A model generated the notes under the pieces. The model was not told the origin of the DNA, searched no databases, and saw only the letters and a list, made by a program, of their open reading frames with translations. A program made the position numbers and the translations under genes. Below, one piece after another: positions 11,502 to 59,601 of a stretch of DNA of 64,000 bases. This DNA comes from an uncultured Clostridia bacterium (GTDB lineage: Bacteria > CAYTYR01 > UBA6262), in the NCBI GenBank assembly GCA_964441745.1, contig CAYTYR010000002.1, positions 62,001 to 126,000 of the forward strand, read 5' to 3'. Position 1 is the first letter of the stretch; every line of letters starts with the position of its first letter.

Positions 11502-12722
11502 ATGCGTAACTTGAGCAAAAGATACATTTTCATGGTTTTATTCATTGTGGTATTTGGCCTGATCAGTTTCACCGGTACCACCACCAAGATGTATGATGAG
11601 TTGAAGCTATTTAGCGAGGGCTTGGAACGGATCCAGAGTAATTATGTCGAAGAAGTTGATCCTAAGAAGCTGATCTATGGCGCTCTCAGCGGCATGGCCA
11701 GGTCTCTTGACCCATATTCACAGTTTATGGAACCGGATATGTATAATGAGACCAAAGTGGAGACTGAAGGAGAGTTTGGCGGCCTGGGTATCAGGATCGA
11801 GATCAAGGATGAAATTCTCACCGTGGTGGCGCCGATAGAAGGGACTCCGGCTTATAAACAGGGTGTCCTGCCCGGTGATCGGATTACTAAAATTGACGGT
11901 AAAGAAACTAAAGGATTAAGCCTGCTGGAAGCGGTGAAGCGGCTGCGCGGCGCTAAAGGGACCAAGGTAGCTATTACTATTTACCGGGAAGGCGCCAAGG
12001 ACCTGCTTGAATTTACCATTGTCCGGGATATGATCAAGATCGAAAGCGTAAAATATAAGATGCTCAATGAAAAAATAGGCTACATTAAGATCAATGAATT
12101 TACCGAAAAAACAGCCTTGGACCTGGATAAGGCGCTCACCGCGCTGGAAAAATCTAACGCTGAAAAGCTGATCTTGGACCTCCGCAATAATCCTGGCGGA
12201 TTGCTCAATACCTGTATCGAAGTATGCAAGCAATTTATTGGCGACAATAAACTCCTGCTTTCGATCCGGGGCCGGGATACCAAAATGAACCAGCAGTTTA
12301 TTGCTGACAAGACGGCGAAACATAAGAAGTGGCCAATGGTGGTGCTGGTAAATAAGGGCAGCGCCAGTGCCAGCGAAATATTATCCGGCGTGGTCCAGGA
12401 TTATAAACGGGGAACGATCTTGGGCGCCAAGACTTTTGGCAAAGGAAGTGTCCAAACCGTGATGCCGATGAGTGATGGCAGCGGACTGCGTTTAACTACG
12501 GCCAAGTATTACCTCCCCAGCGGGCGCTCGATCCATGAGATCGGCGTGACTCCGGATATAATTGTGGAAATACCCCGCGAAGATGAAGTCAAGCTGATGA
12601 TGCAAATTGAAGGGATCCCGCTGAAATCAGGCGAAAAACCGGTTAAAGATCTTATTTTGGAAAAGGCGATAGAAATACTGCAGCCAGTGAAAGATGCTAA
12701 CACCGCGAAAAAGGGTAAATAG
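11502..12722 (+). CDS. ctpA: Carboxyl-terminal processing protease (S41, PDZ)
   Basis: LDPYS, FGGLGI, DLRNNPGG, SASASEI and TFGKGSVQ motifs. Confidence 0.93.
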   Translation: MRNLSKRYIFMVLFIVVFGLISFTGTTTKMYDELKLFSEGLERIQSNYVEEVDPKKLIYGALSGMARSLDPYSQFMEPDMYNETKVETEGEFGGLGIRIEIKDEILTVVAPIEGTPAYKQGVLPGDRITKIDGKETKGLSLLEAVKRLRGAKGTKVAITIYREGAKDLLEFTIVRDMIKIESVKYKMLNEKIGYIKINEFTEKTALDLDKALTALEKSNAEKLILDLRNNPGGLLNTCIEVCKQFIGDNKLLLSIRGRDTKMNQQFIADKTAKHKKWPMVVLVNKGSASASEILSGVVQDYKRGTILGAKTFGKGSVQTVMPMSDGSGLRLTTAKYYLPSGRSIHEIGVTPDIIVEIPREDEVKLMMQIEGIPLKSGEKPVKDLILEKAIEILQPVKDANTAKKGK

Positions 12723-13822
12723 TGAAGAAAAAAGCTAAAGCTTTATTAAGGGCGTTGATCATCCTATCTATTCTGGGATTGGGTGTTTATTATGTTTACT
12801 TGACGTATATCAATCCTCCGGTTGTGGATTATGACCGGATCAGTAATAAGGTGGATCAGGCGATCGACCAGGTGTTGGTGTCTTATGGGGCCAGCAACTT
12901 AAATATTATTAAAGTTTATAAGGAAGAAAAAGCACTGGCCAAAATTACCTGGATCCAGACGACCAAAGAGATCAGGTTAGCGGAAACTATTGATTTAAGC
13001 GAAGCGGGGAAAGCTTTAAAAAAAGCCATTGAAGACGAGGGAGCCAGGGTGATATCAATGAACCTGAACTCCGCTGAAAACACCTTAGTCTTGAAAGCTG
13101 GAATCAAAAATGTTGTTTTAGAAATACTGATCTTGCGCCGCCAGGCTGCCGCGCCAAAATACCGGGCTGCCATTATTATTGATGACCTGGGATATGACCG
13201 GAAAGTAGTTGGTCCACTGCTGGCGTTACAGGAGCAATTAACCTTTGCCATTATGCCGGGGGAGCGTTATTCGAAAATTATTGCTGAACAGGTGGCTAAA
13301 GCCGGCTGTGAGGTAATCCTGCACCAGCCAATGGAGCCAATGGGCTATCCTGGCATCAATGTGGGTAAGCGCGCTCTCCTGATGAAAATGGACACTCAAC
13401 AAATGCGGCAAATGCTGGAAAAGAATATCAGTGATGTGCCTTATCTAAGCGGGGTAAACAACCACATGGGCTCGCGCCTGACTGAAGATGCGGAAAAAAT
13501 GCAGGAAGTAATGAGTATCCTGAAAAAACACCGCTTGTTCTTTGTTGACAGTAAAACCAGCGCTAAATCCCTGGCCAACCAGACTGCCAAAAAAACTGGC
13601 ATCAAATCAGCCTCAAACCAGGTCTTCCTGGATAACCAGGATGACTTGGAGTACATCAAAAAACAATTGGATACAGTGGCCGCCTTGGCGGTAAAAAATA
13701 AAAAAGTAATAGCGATCGGTCATTGCGAAAGGAAAGAAACACTGCTAGCCCTGCAGGAAAAACTGCCTGAATTCAAAAAAATGGGCATTGCCATCGTGCC
13801 GGTATCGCAGCTCGTAGAATAG
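12722..13822 (+). CDS. Divergent polysaccharide deacetylase family protein (YibQ-like)
   Basis: AIIIDDLG, HQPMEP, GVNNHMGS, FFVDSKT, VFLDN and IAIGH motifs. Confidence 0.9.
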   Translation: MKKKAKALLRALIILSILGLGVYYVYLTYINPPVVDYDRISNKVDQAIDQVLVSYGASNLNIIKVYKEEKALAKITWIQTTKEIRLAETIDLSEAGKALKKAIEDEGARVISMNLNSAENTLVLKAGIKNVVLEILILRRQAAAPKYRAAIIIDDLGYDRKVVGPLLALQEQLTFAIMPGERYSKIIAEQVAKAGCEVILHQPMEPMGYPGINVGKRALLMKMDTQQMRQMLEKNISDVPYLSGVNNHMGSRLTEDAEKMQEVMSILKKHRLFFVDSKTSAKSLANQTAKKTGIKSASNQVFLDNQDDLEYIKKQLDTVAALAVKNKKVIAIGHCERKETLLALQEKLPEFKKMGIAIVPVSQLVE

Positions 13823-13823
13823 A

Positions 13824-13887
13824 AAATTCTAAATTACAAATTACATCTCCCGATGTTCCATCGGGATTATGCTAAATTAAGGATTTT
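13824..13887 (+). repeat. Family B left arm (AAATTAC-type heptamers, with inserted TCCCGATG/CATCGGGA mini-hairpin)
   Basis: AAATTCT AAATTAC AAATTAC ... AAATTAAGGATTTT; reverse complement of the arm at 14244-14294. Confidence 0.75.
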
Positions 13888-13889
13888 GA

Positions 13890-14282
13890 TTGAAAAAAAA
13901 TATAATTAAAGATAAAGCGTATCTTTTTGCTTTGAGCGTTATTAAATTAATTAAAAAAATGGGATTTGATCCTGCATCAAAAGTTTTAGGAAAGCAATTA
14001 GTAAGAGCAGCGACATCTATTGGGGCAAATATAGAAGAAGCTCAATCTGCCAGTAGCAGGAAAGATTTTATTAATAAAATTTATATAGCCAAAAAGGAAG
14101 CAAGAGAAGCTAATTATTGGTTAAGACTTATACGGGATGCTAGTTTATCTGATAATGATGAAATAAAGAAAATAATCAAAGATGGTGATGAAATCTACTA
14201 CATACTAACAGCAATTACTAAAACAGCAGAAAATAATAGTGTGAAATCCTTAATTTGTAATAAGCGCAGCGATAAAATTTAG
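13890..14282 (+). CDS. Four-helix bundle protein (TIGR02436 / 23S rRNA IVP family)
   Basis: QLVRAATSIGANIEEAQ.A.SRKDF..K..IA.KEA.E..YWL signature; visibly AT-rich. Confidence 0.9.
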   Translation: MKKNIIKDKAYLFALSVIKLIKKMGFDPASKVLGKQLVRAATSIGANIEEAQSASSRKDFINKIYIAKKEAREANYWLRLIRDASLSDNDEIKKIIKDGDEIYYILTAITKTAENNSVKSLICNKRSDKI

Positions 14283-14294
14283 AATTTGGAATTT
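14244..14294 (+). repeat. Family B right arm
   Basis: AAATCCTTAATTTGTAAT...AATTTAGAATTTGGAATTT. Confidence 0.75.
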
Positions 14295-14297
14295 AAA

Positions 14298-15329
14298 ATG
14301 AACATACTAGCCATTGAAACTTCTTGTGATGAGACCAGTGCCAGCGTCGTTAAAAACGGCAAGGTCATCCTTGCCAATGTTATTTCTTCCCAGATTCACA
14401 TTCACAGTAAATATGGCGGAGTAGTGCCGGAGCTGGCTTCCCGGCATCACCTGGAAAATATTAATTTTGTGATTTCCTCTGCCCTGAAAAAAGCGCGTCT
14501 GCAGATGACGGATATTGACGCATTGGCAGTGACGCAAGGCCCGGGCTTGGTCGGCTCCTTGCTGGCCGGCATCATGGCGGCTAAAACCTTAGCCCTGATC
14601 TACCGGTTGCCTTTACTGCCGGTTAATCATATCGAAGGACACATCTATGCCAATTTTATTGAGCAGCAGCTTAAACCGCCATTTCTGGCCCTGGTTGTTT
14701 CCGGCGGGCATACGGAATTGATCGTCCAGCGGGATTTTAGTCATTATAAAATACTGGGTCGTACCCGTGACGACGCGGTCGGCGAAGCTTATGATAAAGT
14801 GGCTAAATTGCTGGGCCTTGGTTATCCTGGCGGCCCGGTCATCGACCGGTTAGCCAAGCAGGGGAATCCGAATTTTGTTAAGTTCCCCCGGCCGTATTTA
14901 CCCGGCTCGTACGATTTCAGTTTCTCTGGTTTGAAAACTTCTGTCGTTAATTATGTCAGCGGTCAGCGGTCAGCGGTCCCGCCGCTAAAGCGCCGGCGGG
15001 CAGGCAGTGGACAGGTTAAAGATATCGTAGCTAGTTTTCAACAAGCGGTGATAGAAGTGCTTGTTAATAAAACGATCGATACGGCGCAAAAACTGAAGAT
15101 GAAAAAGATCGTTCTCGCTGGCGGGGTGGCGGCGAACTCTGCTTTGCGCAGTCTTTTTGACACAAAAACAAAAAAGGCCGGGATAAAAATATATTATCCC
15201 AGTCCTGTCTTATGTACTGATAATGCCGCCATGATCGGCAGTGCGGCTTATTACCGGTTAAAAAACAAGAAATTAAAATATCACCAGAAAATGCTGACTT
15301 TCAAAGCCGAGCCTAATTTACAGTTGTAA
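14298..15329 (+). CDS. tsaD: tRNA N6-threonylcarbamoyltransferase TsaD
   Basis: ILAIETSCDETS, HIEGH, VSGGHT, DDAVGEAYDK and CTDNAAMI motifs. Confidence 0.96.
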   Translation: MNILAIETSCDETSASVVKNGKVILANVISSQIHIHSKYGGVVPELASRHHLENINFVISSALKKARLQMTDIDALAVTQGPGLVGSLLAGIMAAKTLALIYRLPLLPVNHIEGHIYANFIEQQLKPPFLALVVSGGHTELIVQRDFSHYKILGRTRDDAVGEAYDKVAKLLGLGYPGGPVIDRLAKQGNPNFVKFPRPYLPGSYDFSFSGLKTSVVNYVSGQRSAVPPLKRRRAGSGQVKDIVASFQQAVIEVLVNKTIDTAQKLKMKKIVLAGGVAANSALRSLFDTKTKKAGIKIYYPSPVLCTDNAAMIGSAAYYRLKNKKLKYHQKMLTFKAEPNLQL

Positions 15330-20325: not shown

Positions 20326-21285
20326 ATGAAGAGCAATTTTAAATTACAAATTACAAATGCCAAATTAAGGATAATGCTCTTGATCCTTTCATTAGTCATT
20401 TGTAATTTGGCATTTAGCATTTCCACTTGCGTAGCTAGCGGTACCGGCACGACCGGCGCACAGTTCCTGCGGTTGGGAGCCGGGGCCCGTCCGGTAGCGA
20501 TGGGCGGCGCTTACACCGCGATTGCTGATGATGCCAGCGGGCCGCAGTATAATCCGGCCGGGATTGCCTTTGCTGAGCACAAAGAAGCTGTCGCCAGTTA
20601 TATTGATTACCTGGAAGGTATTAGTTATGGTTATATTGGCTATATTCATCCCTTTCAGAATGGCAGTGCCCTGGGCCTGGCCCTGGCTTATCTTGATTCA
20701 GGGGCAATTGATCAGACTGACCTGGCGGGCAGTGCGATCGGTACTTTTTCCAGTACCCAGAGCCTGCTCTTATTGACGTACGCCAGGACTATTGGCTCAA
20801 AAATGTCCTTAGGCGCCAACCTGAAAGTGTTCCAGCAGAAGATCGAGCAGGAAAAGACTAATGGTTACGCCCTGGATTTTGGCGCCAGCTATAAATTATG
20901 GCCAAGCTTCTCGGCCGGAGTTAACGTTCAGAACCTGGGCCCGGGAGTAAAGTTTGTGCAGGAAAAAGATCCCTTACCGTTAACGATCAAAGCCGGCGTT
21001 GCCTATATTTTTATCGAAGACAGATTAACCTTGGCCAGTGACGCGAAATACCAGCCCAAGGAAGACAGTAAAATTAGCGAGAATGTCGGGGTCGAATACT
21101 GGGTCAATCAAAACCTGGCTCTGCGGGTCGGTTACGATACAGCTAACCTTTCTGATATTGAAAACTTTAACGGCATCACTGCCGGCCTGGGTTTCCAAAT
21201 CGCTGGTTTTAATTTGCATTATGCCTGGATGCCTTACGGCATTCTCGGCGATACACACCGCATTTCTGTGGGTTATAAATGGTGA
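20326..21285 (+). CDS. PorV/PorQ (UPF0164)-family outer-membrane beta-barrel
   Basis: GAQFLRLGAGARPVAMGGAY.AIADDA...YNPAG; terminal THRISVGYKW. Confidence 0.85.
   Translation: MKSNFKLQITNAKLRIMLLILSLVICNLAFSISTCVASGTGTTGAQFLRLGAGARPVAMGGAYTAIADDASGPQYNPAGIAFAEHKEAVASYIDYLEGISYGYIGYIHPFQNGSALGLALAYLDSGAIDQTDLAGSAIGTFSSTQSLLLLTYARTIGSKMSLGANLKVFQQKIEQEKTNGYALDFGASYKLWPSFSAGVNVQNLGPGVKFVQEKDPLPLTIKAGVAYIFIEDRLTLASDAKYQPKEDSKISENVGVEYWVNQNLALRVGYDTANLSDIENFNGITAGLGFQIAGFNLHYAWMPYGILGDTHRISVGYKW
20341..20422 (+). repeat. Family B empty hairpin lying in frame in the signal-peptide region
   Basis: AAATTAC AAATTAC AAATGCC AAATTAAGGAT-10 nt loop-ATCCTT...TGTAATT TGGCATT TAGCATT. Confidence 0.75.
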
Positions 21286-24264: not shown

Positions 24265-24791
24265 TCAAAAGAACAGGATTTACCTTAGTGGAGTTGATGA
24301 TCGTGGTCGCCATTATCGGCATACTGGCGGGTATTGCCATACCCCGTTATATGAATTTCGTGCAACGTTCCAGAGAAGGAGCTACTAAAGGCAGCTTAGG
24401 CGCCATTCGGTCAGCGATAGGTATTTACTATGCAGATAACGAGCATTACCCCCTGGCTCTGTCCTACGATCCCCGGACTGGCAATGAACTGCACGTGTAC
24501 TCTGATGACGGTTTTAGCTGGAACATAGATCCTGATTTTAAGCAGTATCTGGATGAAATTCCTCAGTGCGAGATTGGCCCGGCGCCAACCTTCGTTGATA
24601 ACCCGCATCGTTCTGATATTTGGCACCAGGGACTACACTGGTCCACACCAATCCCTTCTCCCGGGGCCGATGCTGTGGGCTGGTGGTATTTCCGCTCGAC
24701 CGACACTGTATCCGGGTTAGCTGTAGTTGGCAGGCTTCATGTTAATGTCCTGGGGAATGATTACAAAGGAACTCCCTATATTTCATGGTAA
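24246..24791 (+). CDS. Type IV pilin / type II secretion pseudopilin-like protein
   Basis: Prepilin motif G|FTLVELMIVVAIIGILAGIAIP. Confidence 0.85.
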   Translation: MAFSKIIKRTGFTLVELMIVVAIIGILAGIAIPRYMNFVQRSREGATKGSLGAIRSAIGIYYADNEHYPLALSYDPRTGNELHVYSDDGFSWNIDPDFKQYLDEIPQCEIGPAPTFVDNPHRSDIWHQGLHWSTPIPSPGADAVGWWYFRSTDTVSGLAVVGRLHVNVLGNDYKGTPYISW

Positions 24792-24801
24792 AGGAGAATT
24801 T

Positions 24802-27800
24802 ATGAAGCACAGATGGGCAGGGATTTTTACCCTGGCAGCAGTATGCTGGACGCTGCCAGTCTTAGCTGGAGAATTACAGCCGCCTACTTTCGAGCTCAAA
24901 ACGATCAATAATGTTACTGTCCCGTTCCAGAACGATTTGCCTTTGCCAGGTTTTGAAAAGCAGGACCGGGTACAGCTAAATCTGGCTGGTACCTGGAAAA
25001 AAGAACGGCTGGTCATGAACCAGGAATTAACCCTGCAAAAAAGAACTGCCGAGACCATCGCCGAGTTGGAGAAAGAGAGCAATGGCCGGCATTTGGCCGC
25101 TTATGATGATAGCGCCTGGGAAAAGAAAGAGATTCCCGGGGTAGAAAATCCTTCACCTGACCGGTATGAAAGCGGTGTCTGGTACCGGCGGAATTTTGAA
25201 ATAAGCAAGGAAAACGAAGGAAAATACCTGAAACTGGTTTTCCTGGCCGCCAATTACTTCACCGATGTCTGGGTCAACGGTGCCTGGATCGGCTGTCATG
25301 AAGGCGGCTATACGCCTTTTGTCCTGGATCTTACCCCGTATGTCAAATTCGGGGAGAAAAATTCCCTGGCCGTCCGGGTGGATAATATTCCCTGGGTGCC
25401 ATCCGGCAACCGTGACCAGCGCAACCTGACGGTGCCTTGTTATATTGGCGACTGGTGGAATTATGGCGGCATTAAGAGAGATGTCTTTATTGAAATATGC
25501 CCAGCCATCAACATCGTGCGCGCTGATGTTAAAACAAAACCAGCCGGCCCGGATAAGGCGCAGATCAACGCCGCCGTGGTGATCGACAACCGCAGTGAAA
25601 TTGACACGACGCTGAAGGTAGAAGTGTTTGTCTACAAGGCGAAACTGACTGACAAGAATATTCTGGCGGAAAATGCCAAAGAGATCATGGACCTGTCCAA
25701 ACCCTTGACCGTGTGGGGAGAAAGGGCTGCTGAATTGACTGTTTTGGGCAAAGATACGGTGGCCTATAATTTTAGCCTGCCTGCTGATTGGCCTGAACTC
25801 TGGACCCCGGCCCAGCCAAACTTATATGTCCTGCAAGTTAAGGTTTATGACCTTAAGAATAAACAGCTGATCGATAAATATTATACCCAATTCGGGATCA
25901 GGGAATTTACCATTGATAAAAGCAAGGCAGCTATCCTGCTGAACGGGGAGCAGATAAAACTGCGCGGTTTGGCCCGGCATGAAGTTTATCCCGGCAGCAA
26001 CGAAGTCCCCGGAAAAAAGTCACCCCTGCAGATCATTTATGACGATTTTAAGCTGATCAAAGAAGCGAACTGCAATTTTATCCGTACCGCGCATTATCCC
26101 AATCATCCTTTTACTCAGGTCATGGCAGACCGTTTAGGACTCGTGGTCTGGGAAGAAATACCGGTTTACTGGTTTGGCGGGCCGGAGTTTGATCTCCAGC
26201 GCAAGGAGCGGGGTATTGCCCGGCAGATGTGGCAGGAGATGATCTATCAGGATTATAACCGCGCCTCTGTGGCTATCTGGAGCGCTTGTAATGAATGCAG
26301 CTGGCAGACAGAGCGGGCCTTGTTCGTCAAGGAACTGCGCGATATCGCTTACCAGATCGACGGGACCAGGTTCGTCGCCCAATCTGCTTCTGGCAGTGAC
26401 GCCAAGGATCCCAGCCAGAAAGATATGGACTTGCTTGGGTTTACCATGTATTACGGCGTATTCTACGGCGATGATTATTATGAAGACACCCTGGAAGCCC
26501 TGGAAGTCATGCATAAGACTTTCCCGGAGAAACCGATCATTGCCACTGAATTCGGTATCTGGGCGCCCTATCAAGAAGATACTCAGCAGTTGAAGCAGGT
26601 GCAGTTATTCAAGGAAACCATGAATGCTTTCAACAAAGCGCCTGCCGTCGCTGGCACAGTTTGGTGGACTGCTTTTGACTGGCATACCATGATCAACGAT
26701 CCAGGGACCATGGGGATCATGACCATGGACCGGAAATTATATAAGAAAATATTTTCCACATTACAGCGGGAATTTGGCAATACTACGGGTAATATCCAGG
26801 TCGTCAGTCCCAAACAGGATGAAAAACTCACCGGCAAAGTTACCATCAAAGCCTCTTATATGGTCGGCAAGGATTGGCCGGTCAAAGAGATTGTCATTGA
26901 TAATGAGAAAAAATATGCCATGAAAGCTTTAGGCAATAGCTATTATAGCTACGACCTGGATACCAAACTGCTGAGTGAGGGGGATCATTCCCTGGTTTTC
27001 AAAGCCTGGAGCTCATCCGGCACTGCTGTCTCCGAGGCTTTCAATGTAGTAATAGATAATGTTGACGAACCGCCGCTGGTGCAGTTTAGTCCCAAAGACG
27101 GCTCATATGTAATGAATAATGTGCTTTTAAGCGTCAAAGCTGAAGATGACCGCGGTATTGTCTCAGTCAAATATGCTATCGATGACGGCCAGTTTATCGA
27201 TATGGCTGATAAAAGCAAAGGGAACTATCAAGCCCAGTGGGATGCTTCCGCTCTGGGTGACGGCTCCGTGCATGGCATTAAATTCCGTATCGAGGATACA
27301 GGCAAGAACGTAGTTGAAAAACCGGCCAAAGTTATTATTGATAATGTACCTGGCCTCTATCTGGACCTGCCCTTTGATACAGACATGATCTCTACCGCAG
27401 CCAATCTCGCTGATGGCGCCGGTTGGGATTTTCCGGCTGAAGAATTGCCTGATTCCAACCGCGATTTTATCTTCATGGGCCAGGCCAAGATAAAATATAA
27501 ATTTGGCCCCAAGGAAGACGGACAAAATAATAATGTCGAATGTATTGGCCAAACCTTGAAGATCCCTAATGGCCGGTATACTAAAATGCATATCCTGGCA
27601 GCGATGCATAACGGCAGCAGCAAAGTCGACTTCACTCTGCGCTATACTGACGGCACCTCTGAATCTGTCAAGACTGCCTATTCTGACTGGTGGGGAGGCA
27701 AGCCTGTTTTTAATGATGAGCCGGCTATTGTGACTTCTTATCATCATGAAAAAGCCGGTATCCGCCAGCCGGGAGTAGCGATCTTTTCCCAAACCATTAC

Positions 27801-50953: not shown

Positions 50954-51262
50954 TTGATTTATTCTTTAACTGCTAAAGGTAATTTTTCTAAAGACTGGGG
51001 CCTAAAGGAACAGATACAAAGAGCCTCGGTTTCCATAATGAGTAATATTGCTGAGGGATTTGACTGTAGTTCTAGTATAGAATTTGCCAGGTTTCTTGGA
51101 ATAGCACGAAGGTCAGTTTCAGAGGTTCAAAACCAGCTTTATATTGCTCAAGATTTAGACTATATTAGTGTGGCTGAATTTAAACTCTTATATAATAACC
51201 TAGAAGAAACAAGAAGACTAATAACTGCCTTTATCAAGTATCTTAAAAGCCATAAGTCTTAA
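50954..51262 (+). pseudogene. Four-helix bundle protein (23S rRNA IVP family), 5'-truncated
   Basis: QIQRASVSIMSNIAEGF...EF.RFL.IA..S..EV..QL signature; N-terminal helix missing, in-frame TGA at 50933, no RBS. Confidence 0.75.
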
Positions 51263-51320
51263 CTCGCAACTCGCAACTCGCAACTCGCAACTCGCAACTC
51301 GCAACTTGGAACTCGTAACT
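51261..51320 (+). repeat. Heptamer tandem repeat (AACTCGC)x6 plus 2 degenerate units
   Basis: Direct reading; overlaps the stop codon of the four-helix-bundle remnant. Confidence 0.95.
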
Positions 51321-51921: not shown

Positions 51922-53538
51922 ATGAAAAGTAGAATTTTTTTAATTATTTTTACTCTAACTGTAATCTGTCCGCTGTCCGCTGTCCGCTGTGTTTGCGCTG
52001 CTAACTTCGACGAACAGCATCCCACTGCCCGTACTGCCGGCATGGGTGGCGCTTTTACCGGCCAGGCAGATGATATCGGTGCTCTCTGGTTCAACCCCGC
52101 TGGTACAACCCAGCTGACCCAGACCCAGGCTATCTATACCAATCTATCCCCATATATCACCCGGGAGAATGTCCCCTATTATCTGTCCCAATCCTTTAGT
52201 ATGGCTTTCCCTTTAACCACAAATAATGCTTTGGGCTTTGGCTGGAACAATTATCGGGTCAATTATACCTACCAGGAAAATACACTGCTGATGAATTATT
52301 CCCAGAAAATCAATCCATTTATCCCTTGGGAAATCAATGACCTGTCTTTTGGCTTGAACCTCAAAGGCCTCTTCTATGCGCCCAGTGGAGCTGGAGAGGA
52401 TATTTTTGATTCCCTTTCTGGCGGTGACAAGGCCAGGAACGCTTTAGGAATTGATGCTGGTGTGCGCTATAAGATCAACACGGCGCTTAATTTTGGCCTT
52501 TCTTCTATGAATATCAATGAACCTGCGGTGCATATCACTGATCAGTATCAGCGTCTGCCCATCCAAACCAGGATAGGTCTTTCCTATAAAGTGCCCATGC
52601 CCGAAGCTCTCAAGAACATCGGTATCGAGCAAATCACTGCCAATCTCGATGGGATCCTGGCCCAGGCTGAATGGGAGTCCAATATCGGAACGGAATTATC
52701 CCTGTTCAATAATGCCATTGCCTTGCGCGGAGGAGCTAATTCAACTGAAGCGTCTGCCGGGCTTGGCCTGGGGAGCATACAAACAAAGAAATTTGCCTTT
52801 GCGTTGGATTACGCATTTATCTATGGCTACGGCCGGGACTTGCGTGACCGCCAGCATATAATATCCATCAATGTCAGCCGCCTGCTCACCAAGAAACCAG
52901 AAACAGTAGAGACGCCGGAAGAAGAAGTATCACCTTACCGTTTAGGGCCGGATGACGTCCTGCAGATCATTACCCGCAATCATGATGAATTTAGCGGCAA
53001 ATTCGCAGTCGATCCCTATGGCAAGATCTTGATCCCGATGATCGGCGAGATCAAAGCCGAGGATCTGACCCGTGAAGAATTCACTGATGTCTTGAGAGAA
53101 GAAATCGGCAAATATGTCGAAGAAGCCAATGTCATAGTCTCTATTATCCAATACCGCAGTAAGGTGGTATATATCCTGGGTGAAGTGCGCACCCCTGGCA
53201 AATACCCGGTGGAAGGCGATTCTATCGCCCTGCGCGACGCTATTGCCGCCGCCGGTTTCCCGACTGGCCTGGCTGCCACCTGGAGAGTCTACATTATTAA
53301 GCCCAGGACTGTCCGCCCCAGCTACAAAATAGTGAACTTATACAAAATACTTTATCGCGGCAAGATGAAAAATAACATCATGATCACTCCTGGTGACATT
53401 GTCTATGTGCCGTCTACCATGCTGGGCAAGCTGGCTAACAGCCTGAGCCATTTGCTTGATCCATTCTATAAGACCAGGAGCCTGGTTACGCCATTATCAA
53501 CACCGACGCCATTAGTCGATGAGGATACAACGAACTAA
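51922..53538 (+). CDS. Fusion of PorV-like barrel with Wza-type polysaccharide export (Poly_export + SLBB) domains
   Basis: N-terminal ARTAGMGGAFTGQADD..ALWFNPAG; C-terminal YRLGPDDVLQI...VDPYGKI..PMIGEI...VYILGEV..PGKY. Confidence 0.8.
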   Translation: MKSRIFLIIFTLTVICPLSAVRCVCAANFDEQHPTARTAGMGGAFTGQADDIGALWFNPAGTTQLTQTQAIYTNLSPYITRENVPYYLSQSFSMAFPLTTNNALGFGWNNYRVNYTYQENTLLMNYSQKINPFIPWEINDLSFGLNLKGLFYAPSGAGEDIFDSLSGGDKARNALGIDAGVRYKINTALNFGLSSMNINEPAVHITDQYQRLPIQTRIGLSYKVPMPEALKNIGIEQITANLDGILAQAEWESNIGTELSLFNNAIALRGGANSTEASAGLGLGSIQTKKFAFALDYAFIYGYGRDLRDRQHIISINVSRLLTKKPETVETPEEEVSPYRLGPDDVLQIITRNHDEFSGKFAVDPYGKILIPMIGEIKAEDLTREEFTDVLREEIGKYVEEANVIVSIIQYRSKVVYILGEVRTPGKYPVEGDSIALRDAIAAAGFPTGLAATWRVYIIKPRTVRPSYKIVNLYKILYRGKMKNNIMITPGDIVYVPSTMLGKLANSLSHLLDPFYKTRSLVTPLSTPTPLVDEDTTN

Positions 53539-53550
53539 TTGATAGTTAAA

Positions 53551-54084
53551 GGGTGAAGGTTGTGGAAGTAGGTATGGAAGTAGGTCTAAAGTTTTTAGGT
53601 TTAAAATAATTTGAAAGGTAAATAATGGAAACTAAGAAAATCATCAGGAGTTTTTACGATTTAGATGTGTATCAAAGTACATATAATGCAAGCATAAAAG
53701 TAATGACTAAGATACTTCCAACACTACCAGAAAGTGAGAAATTTGATCTAAGAGATCAATTATCCAGATCCAGCAAAGCGATACCAAGATTAATAGCAGA
53801 AGGGTATGCGAAAAAGCATCAAAAAATGGGATTCCAGAAATATCTGGATGATGCTATGGCAGAAAATAATGAAACAATCGTAAGCTTAAGTCACTGCAGA
53901 GATATTTATTCTGATAAAATTGATATTGATTTATGTAAAGAGCTTATAAACTTGTATGACATCGCCGGGAAACAGTTATATAGGCTTTCACTGGCTTGGA
54001 CGACATTTAAACGGAAGGAAAGTTAGTAAGTAGTAGCCTAACACCCTACACCTTACTTCCATACTTACTTCCAAAACTTTCAAC
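53551..54084 (+). mobile_element. Family A hairpin element in filled form, carrying a four-helix-bundle gene between its arms
   Basis: Left arm 53551-~53602 (GGGTGAAGGTTGTGGAAGTAGGTATGGAAGTAGG); right arm ~54035-54084 (CCTTACTTCCATACTTACTTCCAAAACTTTCAAC); mobility inferred, not shown. Confidence 0.7.
53625..54026 (+). CDS. Four-helix bundle protein (23S rRNA IVP family)
   Basis: SFYDLDVYQ...LP.SEKFDL.DQL.RSSKAIP.LIAEG signature. Confidence 0.9.
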   Translation: METKKIIRSFYDLDVYQSTYNASIKVMTKILPTLPESEKFDLRDQLSRSSKAIPRLIAEGYAKKHQKMGFQKYLDDAMAENNETIVSLSHCRDIYSDKIDIDLCKELINLYDIAGKQLYRLSLAWTTFKRKES

Positions 54085-54121
54085 AATTAACCATATTTTA
54101 AAAAGGGGAATTAAAACAACT

Positions 54122-58114: not shown

Positions 58115-58190
58115 ACAGTTTTCCCCTGCTGATTTGTCTTAAAGGACAAATCAAAGACGCGGGGACAGGGGAGTTTTGAATTTAGGTAAA
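58115..58190 (+). repeat. Family C left arm (AGTTTTG-type) interrupted by a GC-rich hairpin
   Basis: ACAGTTTT[CCCCTG...CAGGG]GAGTTTTGAATTTAGGTAAA; complements 58600-58642. Confidence 0.65.
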
Positions 58191-58203
58191 TTAATTTTAC
58201 AGG

Positions 58204-58575
58204 ATGGATCTATTGATAAAAAACGACATTGAGAAAAGGACGCGTAACTACGCTATACAAGCAATTAAATTAGCAAAGAGTATTGAAAAAGACGATATAA
58301 ATCGAATACTGATTAGACAATATGTTAGATCAGCCACATCGCTTGGAGCTAATGTAGCTGAAGCCCAAGCAGCTTCAAGCAGAAAAGATTTCGTTAATAA
58401 GATGCAAATAGCAAGTAAGGAGGCTCGTGAAACAAAGTATTGGCTAAGCATAATGCGCGATATAGAAGTTTGCACTAAGGCTAAAATAGCAGAGAACATC
58501 CAGGAAGCAGGTCAAATTATCAATATAATAACAGCTATAGTAAAAAATACTCAAAAAAATGAAGCCTATTTTTAG
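58204..58575 (+). CDS. Four-helix bundle protein (TIGR02436 family)
   Basis: RQYVRSATSLGANVAEAQAASSRKDF..K..IA.KEARET.YWL. Confidence 0.9.
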   Translation: MDLLIKNDIEKRTRNYAIQAIKLAKSIEKDDINRILIRQYVRSATSLGANVAEAQAASSRKDFVNKMQIASKEARETKYWLSIMRDIEVCTKAKIAENIQEAGQIINIITAIVKNTQKNEAYF

Positions 58576-58593
58576 GCCAGGGAGGAAATAATA

Positions 58594-59601
58594 ATGTTGT
58601 TTAACCTTAACTCAAAACTCAAAACTTATGACTCAAAACTGTTTTTAACATTGCTGCTTCTATGCGCCGTAATCCAACCACGAACTCTCTTGGCCCAAAG
58701 CCATAAAAACTCCGGCGCCAACGGCGCCCAAATATTGGAATTAAAAACCGGCGCTCGCCCCTCCGCCATGGGCGGCGCGTTTGTGAGTATCAGCGATGAT
58801 TCTAATGCTGTCGCCTACAATCCAGCCGGCTTGGCTTATTTGACCAAAACAGAGCTTCAGCTCAACCAGAACAAATTATTTTCTGAAGCTACTTCCAACT
58901 ACATTGGCTGGGTCTATCCCTTGGATGAAATGCATGCCCGCAATGTTTTTGACCTGGGTACTTTAGCTGGCAACCTGAACTTTGTTGATTATGGCAAGAT
59001 AGCCGGTCGCGATAATTTGGGCAATGACACCGGAGAATTCGGAGCCAGGGACAGAGTCATCTCTCTGGCCTATGGCAAGGCCTTTACTACTAACTTTGCC
59101 GTTGGCTTAACTGCCAGGCAAATTCGGGAAGAGATTGCCGCTGTCACTGCCAATGGTTACAGCTTTGATGCCGGTATGCTCTTCACCAATATTATGGATA
59201 CCTTTAATATCGGCATTGCTGCCCAAAACTTGGGAGACAAGATCACCTTTGAGCAGGAAGCCAATCCTCTGCCCGCCAATTATGTCATCGGTACCTCCTT
59301 AAACCTCTTTGATAACAGCTTGACCTTAGCCGCTGACCTGAACAAGCCAGTCCATGACTACTACCATTGGAACTTTGGCAGTGAATATTGGCTCACCAGT
59401 GTCTTAGCTCTGCGTCTGGGCTATGATACCAAGCATGATATCGGCAACGGGCTCTCAACAGGAATCGGCGTTAGTTTGCAGGATTTTGAATTTTCCTTTG
59501 TCCCGCTCTCTGAACTGGCGATCAACTATGCCTATGTTTCCCGCGGTGACCTTGGTGTCATCCACCAGATAGAGTTGGTGCTAAAGATAGGTATTGAGTA
59601 A
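58594..59601 (+). CDS. PorV/PorQ-family outer-membrane beta-barrel
   Basis: GAQILEL..GARPSAMGGAF....DD....YNPAG; DLGVIHQI near C-terminus. Confidence 0.82.
   Translation: MLFNLNSKLKTYDSKLFLTLLLLCAVIQPRTLLAQSHKNSGANGAQILELKTGARPSAMGGAFVSISDDSNAVAYNPAGLAYLTKTELQLNQNKLFSEATSNYIGWVYPLDEMHARNVFDLGTLAGNLNFVDYGKIAGRDNLGNDTGEFGARDRVISLAYGKAFTTNFAVGLTARQIREEIAAVTANGYSFDAGMLFTNIMDTFNIGIAAQNLGDKITFEQEANPLPANYVIGTSLNLFDNSLTLAADLNKPVHDYYHWNFGSEYWLTSVLALRLGYDTKHDIGNGLSTGIGVSLQDFEFSFVPLSELAINYAYVSRGDLGVIHQIELVLKIGIE
58600..58642 (+). repeat. Family C right arm (AAAACTC heptamers), in frame in the N-terminus of the downstream gene
   Basis: TTTAACC TTAACTC AAAACTC AAAACTT ATGACTC AAAACTG. Confidence 0.75.

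Follow-up and report, generated by a model that had tools for sequence, protein, structure and literature searches.

The unit between the deacetylase gene and tsaD

The window analysed here is a 64,000-nucleotide (nt) stretch of genome from an uncultured Clostridia bacterium (contig CAYTYR010000002.1, positions 62,001 to 126,000). At window positions 13823-14294 it holds a 472-bp unit that fills the whole junction between a divergent polysaccharide deacetylase gene and tsaD (Table 1) and carries a gene for a four-helix-bundle (4HB) protein between arms made of heptamers. We call the hairpin family with the arms of this cassette family B; G000 denotes the genome holding the window, G001-G005 members of the same genus, G006 a member of the same family and G007 a class-level relative. 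A preliminary description, drawn from the sequence alone, had placed the 4HB gene in a heptamer-based inverted repeat between the two genes, with the right arm forming the last codons of the open reading frame (ORF) next to the tsaD start. The sequence reads as described, with AATT-core arms on both sides, and hidden Markov model (HMM) searches confirmed the identities of the genes.

A repeat search returned an outer inverted pair (12 nt, 100% identity) and an inner one (20 nt, 85%), along with an alternative register of 11 nt. The left outer array is identical over 24 of 24 nt to a gene-less copy of the hairpin elsewhere in the genome (G000:C10:25539). Gene-less copies carry, at the position of the mini-hairpin in the left spacer, either variants of that mini-hairpin or plain spacer; the mini-hairpin itself (13848-13866) scores as terminator-like on the minus strand only. 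The Shine-Dalgarno sequence of the 4HB ORF, AAGGA (13879-13883), lies inside the left inner arm, 6 nt ahead of the TTG start. The GC content of the gene is ~0.31, compared with 0.43-0.54 in the flanking DNA.

Flank complementarity exceeds that of shuffled AT-rich sequence, the comparison on which the preliminary description had staked its claim. Chained complementarity scored 38.4, against 15.8 +/- 3.0 in dinucleotide-preserving shuffles of the right flank, none of which reached it (0 of 1000); the best single complementary block was matched by 2 of 1000 such shuffles. The arms have an RNA duplex energy of -27.3 kcal/mol, compared with -13.9 +/- 3.1 kcal/mol in shuffles (0 of 300). Both stems appear in the minimum free energy (MFE) and centroid structures predicted for the RNA of 13815-14300, with a modest whole-molecule z-score of -2.15.

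We also scored flank complementarity genome-wide over the 1799 usable ORF-genes of G000, a greedy non-overlapping set of ORFs of at least 90 amino acids (aa). The target gene ranked 25th; over all genes the median score was 15 and the 99th percentile 29. The other six TIGR02436 genes of this genome took ranks 3, 4, 8, 17, 34 and 1289, the last being a copy that lacks its N-terminus and has an array on just one side. Six of seven copies thus fall within the top 34 genes, in agreement with the earlier proposal that the target has the same gene-in-hairpin build as other copies.

The highest flank complementarity in the genome (64 and 61) belongs to two genes of ~320 aa (G000:C8:5396-6343 and G000:C22:25815-26810) that have GACCCCATTG-type inverted and tandem repeats alongside. 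By eye, their products resemble transposases of the RAYT type (tyrosine transposases associated with repetitive extragenic palindromes, REPs) and end in a C-terminal helix-turn-helix. A 421-aa transposase-like ORF at G000:C1:164434-165699 has ~30-nt imperfect inverted ends (AATGTCCTA...AGAAATGTCC); by eye it looks like an ordinary insertion sequence (IS), unrelated to the heptamer hairpins.

The target protein matches TIGR02436 over the full domain (2e-28, 98.7 bits, cut-off 24) and PF05635 over residues 3-107 (6e-24, 84.7 bits, cut-off 33.8; 106-position model). A profile search of the PDB matched 2rld, an S23-family structure with five chains (E 5.9e-32). An AlphaFold model (mean pLDDT, the predicted local distance difference test, 93.7) has four helices at residues 5-23, 28-52, 57-83 and 89-129. 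Its top Foldseek matches were 2rld (BT_0352; template-modelling (TM) score 0.74-0.92) and 2gsc (Xcc0516; TM 0.74-0.87), each with chains A-E, followed by Avd (4dwl) and the ribonucleoprotein (RNP) 8ub7 of a diversity-generating retroelement (DGR). The model is a confident up-down four-helix bundle like the solved PF05635 members.

The deep subfamily of the target has the motif SIGAN..EA..SRKDF..KEA.E..YW, and its relatives in the genus are those of loci L005 (43% identity), L006 (33%) and L050 (30%); no orthologue of the target gene was found in the genus. Elsewhere in the genus, dN/dS was 0.07-0.14 in 6 of 8 ortholog pairs, those with computable dS, and the 4HB proteins are under purifying selection. 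The target was unmatched by the bAvd-like model PF22296 at E <= 1, whereas 10 of 20 genus paralogues do match it. PADLOC assigned no family to the target and gave a single weak match (E 0.0049) among the 20 paralogues. A link of Avd and of the intervening sequence (IVS) protein to the HEPN superfamily was dropped, as the text of a HEPN survey (PMC3710099) mentions neither.

Table 1. Positions of the unit, its parts, its neighbours and further cassettes in the window
Feature	Position	Strand	Basis and remarks
Divergent polysaccharide deacetylase gene	12722..13822	+	PF04748 (Polysacc_deac_2) 8.6e-77; TAG stop 13820-13822 abuts left arm
Left outer array, three tandem heptamers (AAAATTC, TAAATTA, CAAATTA), AATT core	13823-13843		Sequence and repeat search
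Mini-hairpin TCCCGATG-TTC-CATCGGGA in left spacer, 8-bp G+C-rich stem	13848-13866		Sequence
Left inner arm TTATGCTAAATTAAGGATTT	13867-13886		20-nt inverted pair, 85%; pairs with 14244-14263 in MFE and centroid
Segment extra relative to gene-less family-B hairpins, ~357 bp	13887..14243		Aligned to 13 gene-less copies (loop there 15-35 nt)
4HB ORF, 130 aa, PF05635/TIGR02436, SIGAN...YWL subfamily	13890-14282	+	TTG start 13890; TAG stop 14280-14282
Right inner arm AAATCCTTAATTTGTAATAA	14244-14263		Within final 13 codons of 4HB ORF
Right spacer GCGCAGCGATA, 11 nt	14264-14274		Also in gene-less copies, e.g. C26:19584-19712
Right outer array AAATTTAGAATTTGGAATTT (AAATTTA, GAATTTG, GAATTT)	14275-14294		Covers ORF stop 14280-14282; 3 nt short of tsaD ATG
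tsaD	14298..15329	+	TIGR03723 (TsaD equivalog) 4.6e-130; ATG 14298 is the start used in relatives (MNIL...)
Truncated TIGR02436 gene, 102 aa (HMM positions 11-109)	50954..51320	+	Six perfect CTCGCAA heptamers after stop; no left arm
Cassette (bounds approximate), 133-aa ORF 53625-54026, GGAAGTAGGTATGGAAGTAGGTCT-type arms	53535..54095	+	Rank 4 of 1799
Cassette (bounds approximate), 123-aa ORF 58204-58575, GAGTTTT/GAATTTA arms	58165..58645	+	Closest paralogue of target (43%); rank 34 of 1799

Heptamer arrays with and without the gene

An HMM search found 21 further TIGR02436 matches in G001-G005 and none in G006-G008. Most of these genus genes are bracketed by inverted arrays with a unit of their own, and orthologues have common units; within G000, arm units differ from copy to copy. 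We then scanned species-representative genomes with a four-protein alignment of the target's subfamily, which yielded 80 loci in many phyla, 77 of them usable. Flank complementarity reached at least 26 at 68 of the 77, a level attained by 15 of 604 decoy pairings made within these loci. A second sample, the best TIGR02436 matches from 23 other genomes, represents the NIAEG-type subfamily and has inverted arms at 18 of 23 loci, against 7 of 184 decoys.

The period is likewise common to both samples: a lag of 7 was the best in 121 of 154 flanks of the target's subfamily and in 33 of 46 NIAEG-type flanks. The modal array is 32 nt long (20 of 85 arrays; 31 of 85 measure 31-33 nt), which corresponds to five 4-nt cores spaced by 3 nt. 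The median unit spans 450 nt, with arms lying 11 nt before the start codon and 1.5 nt after the stop. Together, these results show that a gene between inverted heptamer arrays is the rule for the protein family. Family members occur in 59 of 151 sampled genomes, at 1-14 copies per genome.

Several loci have peculiarities of their own. At 7 of the 77 (L058, L090, L091, L096, L112, L120 and L136) a stop codon interrupts the frame when the tblastn match is extended. Either the genes have decayed or the matches run on into arm sequence, a possibility suggested by the arm-encoded tail of the target, and the distances from stop to arm at these loci should not be relied on. L080, in a metagenome-assembled genome of the Bacteroidales, breaks the hairpin rule, with two AATTTTG-unit arrays in direct rather than inverted orientation. 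The left flank of L002 (G000:C12, upstream of 24493-24813) is a tandem ~40-nt unit (GAAAACGCAGATAGCTAATGGCGTATGGCAGGAACAA-like) that runs into Ns, and the arm may exceed its assembled length. In the window, the truncated gene at 50954-51320 starts directly after the upstream gene and seems to be a cassette in decay.

Many cassettes of the genus lie directly upstream of genes for PorV-like outer-membrane proteins at seven places (L039, L040, L041, L042, L044, L045 and L057; window 58204-58645). This could be a preference for such genes or a mere consequence of the 7-11 paralogues per genome. At L005, L040 and L045, the right arm is part of the sequence that encodes the N-terminus of the next protein downstream.

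The preliminary description had further suggested that each protein subfamily has a cognate repeat, and this holds at depth. Across phyla, 88 of 106 arrays of the target's subfamily have the core n-A-R-T-T-n-n, whereas the other subfamily has it in 8 of 41; with letter-shuffled units the A-R-T-T core was found on average 33.6 times and at most 46 times. Arm GC averages 0.20 and barely follows the host (r = 0.34), staying near that value at a host GC of 0.6-0.7 (0.22 in a host at 0.70, for example), while ORF GC does follow host GC (r = 0.86). Moreover, three orthologous sites of the genus hold different cassettes in different species (L005 versus L040/L045/L057, L007/L053 versus L048, and L039 versus L044/L047). 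At these swapped sites the flanks are homologous on both sides, the 4HB proteins are only 19-36% identical and the arm units differ with the gene, which supports the gene plus its cognate arms as the probable unit of exchange.

Below the level of the deep subfamily, arms follow the protein clade only loosely. The closest paralogue, L005, writes GAGTTTT/GAATTTA, while the more distant L006 has AAATTCT like the target. The target's own arms are not confined to the gene, as they occur without it at least 11 times in G000 and also in G003, G004 and G005; G006, in which no 4HB gene was detected, still has heptamer arrays at 7.7 per 100 kb. An inverted arm polarity of the target cassette was considered and dropped: the AATT core is palindromic, and AAATTCT fits the unit matrix of the subfamily either way.

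The gene-less family-B hairpins of G000 measure ~100-130 nt each. Their arms have three heptamers on the outside and two or three units on the inside; the spacer between them is a mini-hairpin in some copies and plain (ATCGCTTCGCTTAT / ATAAGCGCAGCGAT) in others, and the loop spans 15-35 nt. They align to positions 13823-~13880/13886 and ~14244/14248-14297 of the cassette; because they match only its two ends, we read the target as a family-B hairpin in which ~357 bp with the ORF take the place of the loop. Among 13 gene-less copies aligned to the cassette, a search of the loops for ORF remnants gave only scattered short matches, so an origin of these copies as deletion derivatives is not demonstrated. 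With at most 3 mismatches allowed, a 21-nt pattern of the arm occurs 23 times in G000, 14 times in G003, 6 in G004, 5 in G005, 3 in G002, once in G001 and not in G006; its reversed control had 0 matches in any genome.

Heptamer arrays are abundant in G000 as a whole, with 185 arrays of period 7 (8.9 per 100 kb) compared with 3-42 for periods 5, 6, 8 and 9. The largest clusters are of the AGCGTAT (69), AAATTCT (26) and GAGTTTT (18) types. In 151 of the 185, the unit is within one mismatch of the arm unit of a resident cassette, whereas shuffled units averaged 44 such matches and never exceeded 113 in 200 trials. This match fits cassettes as parents of the gene-less arrays and fits equally genes landing in abundant hairpins. 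Local alignment found 40 inverted array pairs, 34 of them with a loop below 100 nt; the criterion of shared exact 7-mers found 8. Two long-loop pairs (G000:C3:38077 and C9:37873) were rejected as cargo cassettes, being ordinary genes with dispersed arrays alongside.

One gene-less family-B hairpin of the window (20333-20424) forms an in-frame part of the 5' end of a gene for a PorV-like outer-membrane protein (20326-21285; PF19572, 1.3e-10). Its A-rich left arm encodes the polar, basic start of the protein (MKSNFKLQITNAKLR), and its T-rich right arm encodes the hydrophobic core (IMLLILSLVICNLAFS) of an apparent signal peptide. Orthologues in G003, G002, G001 and G005 contain variants of the hairpin; that of G004 has an ordinary signal peptide without it.

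The preliminary description had also called for a check of deacetylase-tsaD adjacency in relatives. The two genes are adjacent in 7 of 7 relatives (five from the genus, one from the family and one from the class), and none of the seven has a 4HB gene between them. The G001 junction is empty, with the stop codon and the ATG ~1 nt apart, and that of G007 is a 40-nt gap. The other five have gene-less heptamer hairpins of 100-128 nt, no two alike, with units of the type GTTGCGA in G003, GGAAGTAGGT in G002, GCGAGTC in G004, AAATGTC/AAATGAC in G005 and GTTACGA in G006. Since five relatives hold five different hairpins, the junction has been occupied repeatedly and independently. Comparison of the filled site with the empty G001 site, a weak test on a single empty site, showed no target-site duplication.

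Origin and working of the cassette

On balance, we lean towards reading window 13823-14294 as an ORF-bearing copy of a hairpin repeat family, that is, a selfish cassette of the rRNA-IVS type situated outside rRNA. The cassette would be transcribed within the deacetylase-tsaD transcript. Among the 68 armed loci, both neighbours lie on the ORF strand at 52 and both on the opposite strand at 2, with '+-' at 4, '-+' at 5 and a neighbour lacking on one side at 5. On the plus strand, neither a promoter-like site ahead of the target ORF nor a terminator-like site within the cassette was found. Given its sense orientation, the lack of room for a promoter between arm and start, and the lack of promoter- or terminator-like sites, the cassette probably depends on read-through from the host.

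In the resulting RNA the arms are expected to pair, so that the inner stem would cover the ribosome-binding site of the 4HB ORF itself and the outer stem would reach to 3 nt before the tsaD start. By analogy to rRNA IVSs, the stem could be a substrate of an RNase III-type enzyme, which would make the insert tolerable inside an operon; an RNase III gene is present in the genome (234 bits, cut-off 166). The protein, if it forms a ring like its relatives, may bind the heptamer arrays of its own cassette, the modal array having five cores and the solved relatives five chains.

More tentatively, and with considerable doubt, PF05635 proteins might in general be sequence-reading rings, each pentamer sitting on a five-core array of its own cassette, and the cassettes might be the autonomous parents both of rRNA IVSs and of intergenic heptamer repeats (such as STRR, GGGAATC and TAACTGA). 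If true, this would define a class of transposase-free mobile elements that ride host transcripts and are spread over most bacterial phyla.

A number of observations weigh against the selfish-cassette reading. Stem mismatches comprise 136 G:U and 122 A:C pairs, and this lack of a G:U excess means that the sense RNA is not singled out as the folded species. Complementarity is almost as high when the order of heptamers is permuted (the null mean is exceeded at 13 of 19 loci, and 1 is at the 5% level or below; the test has low power with 4-5 units per arm), so the stem may simply result from having one unit arrayed in opposite directions on the two sides. Related loci are phylogenetically non-independent, and the counts given above overstate their statistical weight. 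The target is also atypical in its own subfamily: its arms are split by spacers where the usual arm is an uninterrupted ~32-nt array, and they are C-rich on the 5' side (C > G), whereas the 5' arm has G > C at 79 of 89 loci. Its closest homologue in one scan of the genomes of 185,579 species is at most 54% identical. Family-B arms are also present in G003, G004 and G005, sister species without a close relative of the target protein. In G006 (95% complete) a 323-kb sample contains 25 period-7 arrays, and neither the HMM nor a genus/family profile found a 4HB gene in this genome despite its abundant arrays; G007, also without a 4HB gene, has 0.7 arrays per 100 kb. A dependence of the gene-less hairpins on the 4HB protein is thus unproven. 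Finally, the authors of work on Coxiella consider its S23p probably not made in vivo (PMC4990558).

An alternative that we judge unlikely, though deserving of real weight, makes the heptamer hairpins primary, either self-sufficient or mobilised by the host. The arms would then be host-resident, and the 4HB ORF would be a passenger that landed or recombined in the apical loop of a resident family-B hairpin. Much of the evidence just listed is expected on such a capture: the genus-wide arms, found even in species without the target gene (G001 and G002 as well as the three sister species), the array density of G006, and a target whose arms are laid out as in local gene-less copies (3 units, mini-hairpin spacer, 2-3 units). 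The low GC of the gene and its lack of a genus orthologue would befit a newcomer, and random insertion among hairpins would favour abundant families, which would also explain the 151 of 185 arrays that match resident cassettes. However, an untied passenger predicts neither that arms abut the ORF across phyla at the median distances given above nor that the core follows the subfamily regardless of host GC. Arms and gene have also changed together at the three orthologous sites, and there is no trace of a second, private arm pair inside the family-B arms.

The selfish-cassette reading also has to be set against domestication, which we regard as distinctly improbable. Here the hairpin and an RNA-binding ring protein would serve the host, uncoupling or tuning the deacetylase and tsaD or stabilising the upstream mRNA. 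Strong purifying selection on the genus orthologues, their long vertical persistence at syntenic sites, the sense orientation within operons and the overlap of the arms with the ribosome-binding site and the approach to tsaD all accord with a host function. Against it, the junction is empty or otherwise filled in all seven relatives, so that the operon is independent of the cassette; cassettes sit at unrelated sites beside unrelated genes in many phyla; and copy number ranges over 1-14 per genome, with a copy in only 59 of 151 sampled genomes.

Less probable still is a transposon-derived origin, in which the arms are terminal inverted repeats of an element like a miniature inverted-repeat transposable element (MITE), moved in trans by a RAYT-like or IS transposase, with the 4HB gene as cargo. 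G000 does hold two genes resembling RAYTs by eye and an IS-type transposase with inverted ends, and the dispersed gene-less copies resemble MITEs or REPs. Yet the flanks of the transposase genes consist of GACCCCATTG-type sequence and not of heptamer arrays, the filled and empty sites compared with G001 differ without a target-site duplication, and the degenerate tandem heptamers differ in nearly every cassette, so that one transposase is unlikely to recognise them all. The notion that the complementarity is a chance effect of AT-rich sequence, or that the gene is a DGR Avd with its usual partners, is hardly credible: the region is indeed AT-rich, the fold matches Avd and half of the genus proteins match the bAvd-like model, but this explanation is already contradicted by the shuffles, which never reach the observed complementarity or duplex energy, and by the search for a reverse transcriptase (PF00078), not found across the 98%-complete genome, while the target itself lacks a bAvd match.

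Relation to known systems

The nearest counterparts of the unit are ORF-bearing 23S IVSs, with a Leptospira example cited in PMC4990558. The helix-45 IVS of Coxiella burnetii has an S23p ORF between terminal inverted repeats and a 28-bp stem that RNase III cuts in vitro, and the S23p of Xanthomonas is a homopentameric ring (both from PMC4990558). Such IVSs and the target have in common an insert of ~430-470 nt, a PF05635/S23p ORF and terminal inverted repeats that close a stem around it, as well as a sporadic distribution among relatives, ORF-less versions that are commoner and the sense orientation within the host transcription unit. They differ in that the target lies between two protein-coding genes and not at the tip of an rRNA helix, and in that its arms are spacer-split heptamer arrays, a feature that the passages of PMC4990558 consulted do not mention. 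Gene-less relatives of the target are, in addition, dispersed through intergenic DNA, and cutting by RNase III is a prediction only. The assembly contains no 23S rRNA gene.

The second likeness is to intergenic heptamer repeats, of which the tandem repeats of cyanobacteria are known as STRR. Heptamers of the types GGGAATC and GGGGA(C/T)T have been described in Xanthomonas and Nostoc, with 70-75 convergent (inverted) pairs of runs reported for Xanthomonas (Rehm 2015, PMC4692102), and TAACTGA repeats in Beggiatoaceae, cyanobacteria and Bacteroidetes (PMC4679880). G-quadruplex or translational roles have been proposed for them (PMC4692102, PMC4679880); the main texts of these two papers contain no mention of S23, intervening sequences or four-helix proteins. 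STRR and the repeats of both papers resemble the arrays described here in their 7-nt units, runs of ~4-5, location mostly between co-directional genes, frequent convergent pairs and gain or loss between close relatives. Unlike them, the arrays described here lie on either side of a 4HB gene, and the array families that abound in G000 match resident cassettes. We found no link between heptamer repeats and PF05635/TIGR02436 proteins, and no mention of TIGR02436, in the literature searched, which left most subscription journals and supplements outside.

The connection matters to both fields. The S23p/IVS family is very large and still uncharacterised according to papers of 2016 and 2024, the latter, on rRNA insertions in the candidate phyla radiation (CPR), calling 23S_rRNA_IVP functionally uncharacterised; bacterial heptamer repeats are likewise unexplained. 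The locus and its gene-less siblings tie the two into one system. They also offer experimental handles: a defined 472-bp unit, the vacant junction of a sister species, AATT-core arrays as the predicted ligand of the protein, a stem expected to be cut by RNase III and sites of cassette exchange. Genome annotation has to reckon with cassettes that interrupt operons, contribute stop codons and C-terminal tails, and may even code for signal peptides.

Three further systems invite comparison. Avd (4dwl; DGR RNP 8ub7) has the four-helix-bundle fold (Foldseek TM 0.71-0.85), and its pentameric barrel contacts a structured RNA element (bioRxiv 10.1101/2023.10.23.563531). The target differs in sequence (identity ~11%), in a genome with neither reverse transcriptase nor template/variable repeats, and in its neighbours, the deacetylase gene and tsaD.

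In REPtrons (a REP with its RAYT) and MITEs, a gene is flanked by an inverted short repeat that is also dispersed without the gene as intergenic hairpins, which is the arrangement seen here. The target gene, however, has no transposase or nuclease signature, its heptamer arms vary by cassette and no target-site duplication was seen. In TRAP, a homo-oligomeric ring has as many subunits as the trp leader RNA has regularly spaced (G/U)AG repeats. This provides an analogy only: five cores per modal array would correspond to five chains in solved relatives, in an unrelated fold and with binding that is hypothetical here.

Set beside these systems, the locus departs from the definition of an ORF-bearing rRNA IVS in its location alone, since it is not in rRNA. 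New here are arms that belong to a genus-wide gene-less family, a junction re-occupied by five hairpins, three swaps of whole cassettes and a genome rich in arrays without the gene.

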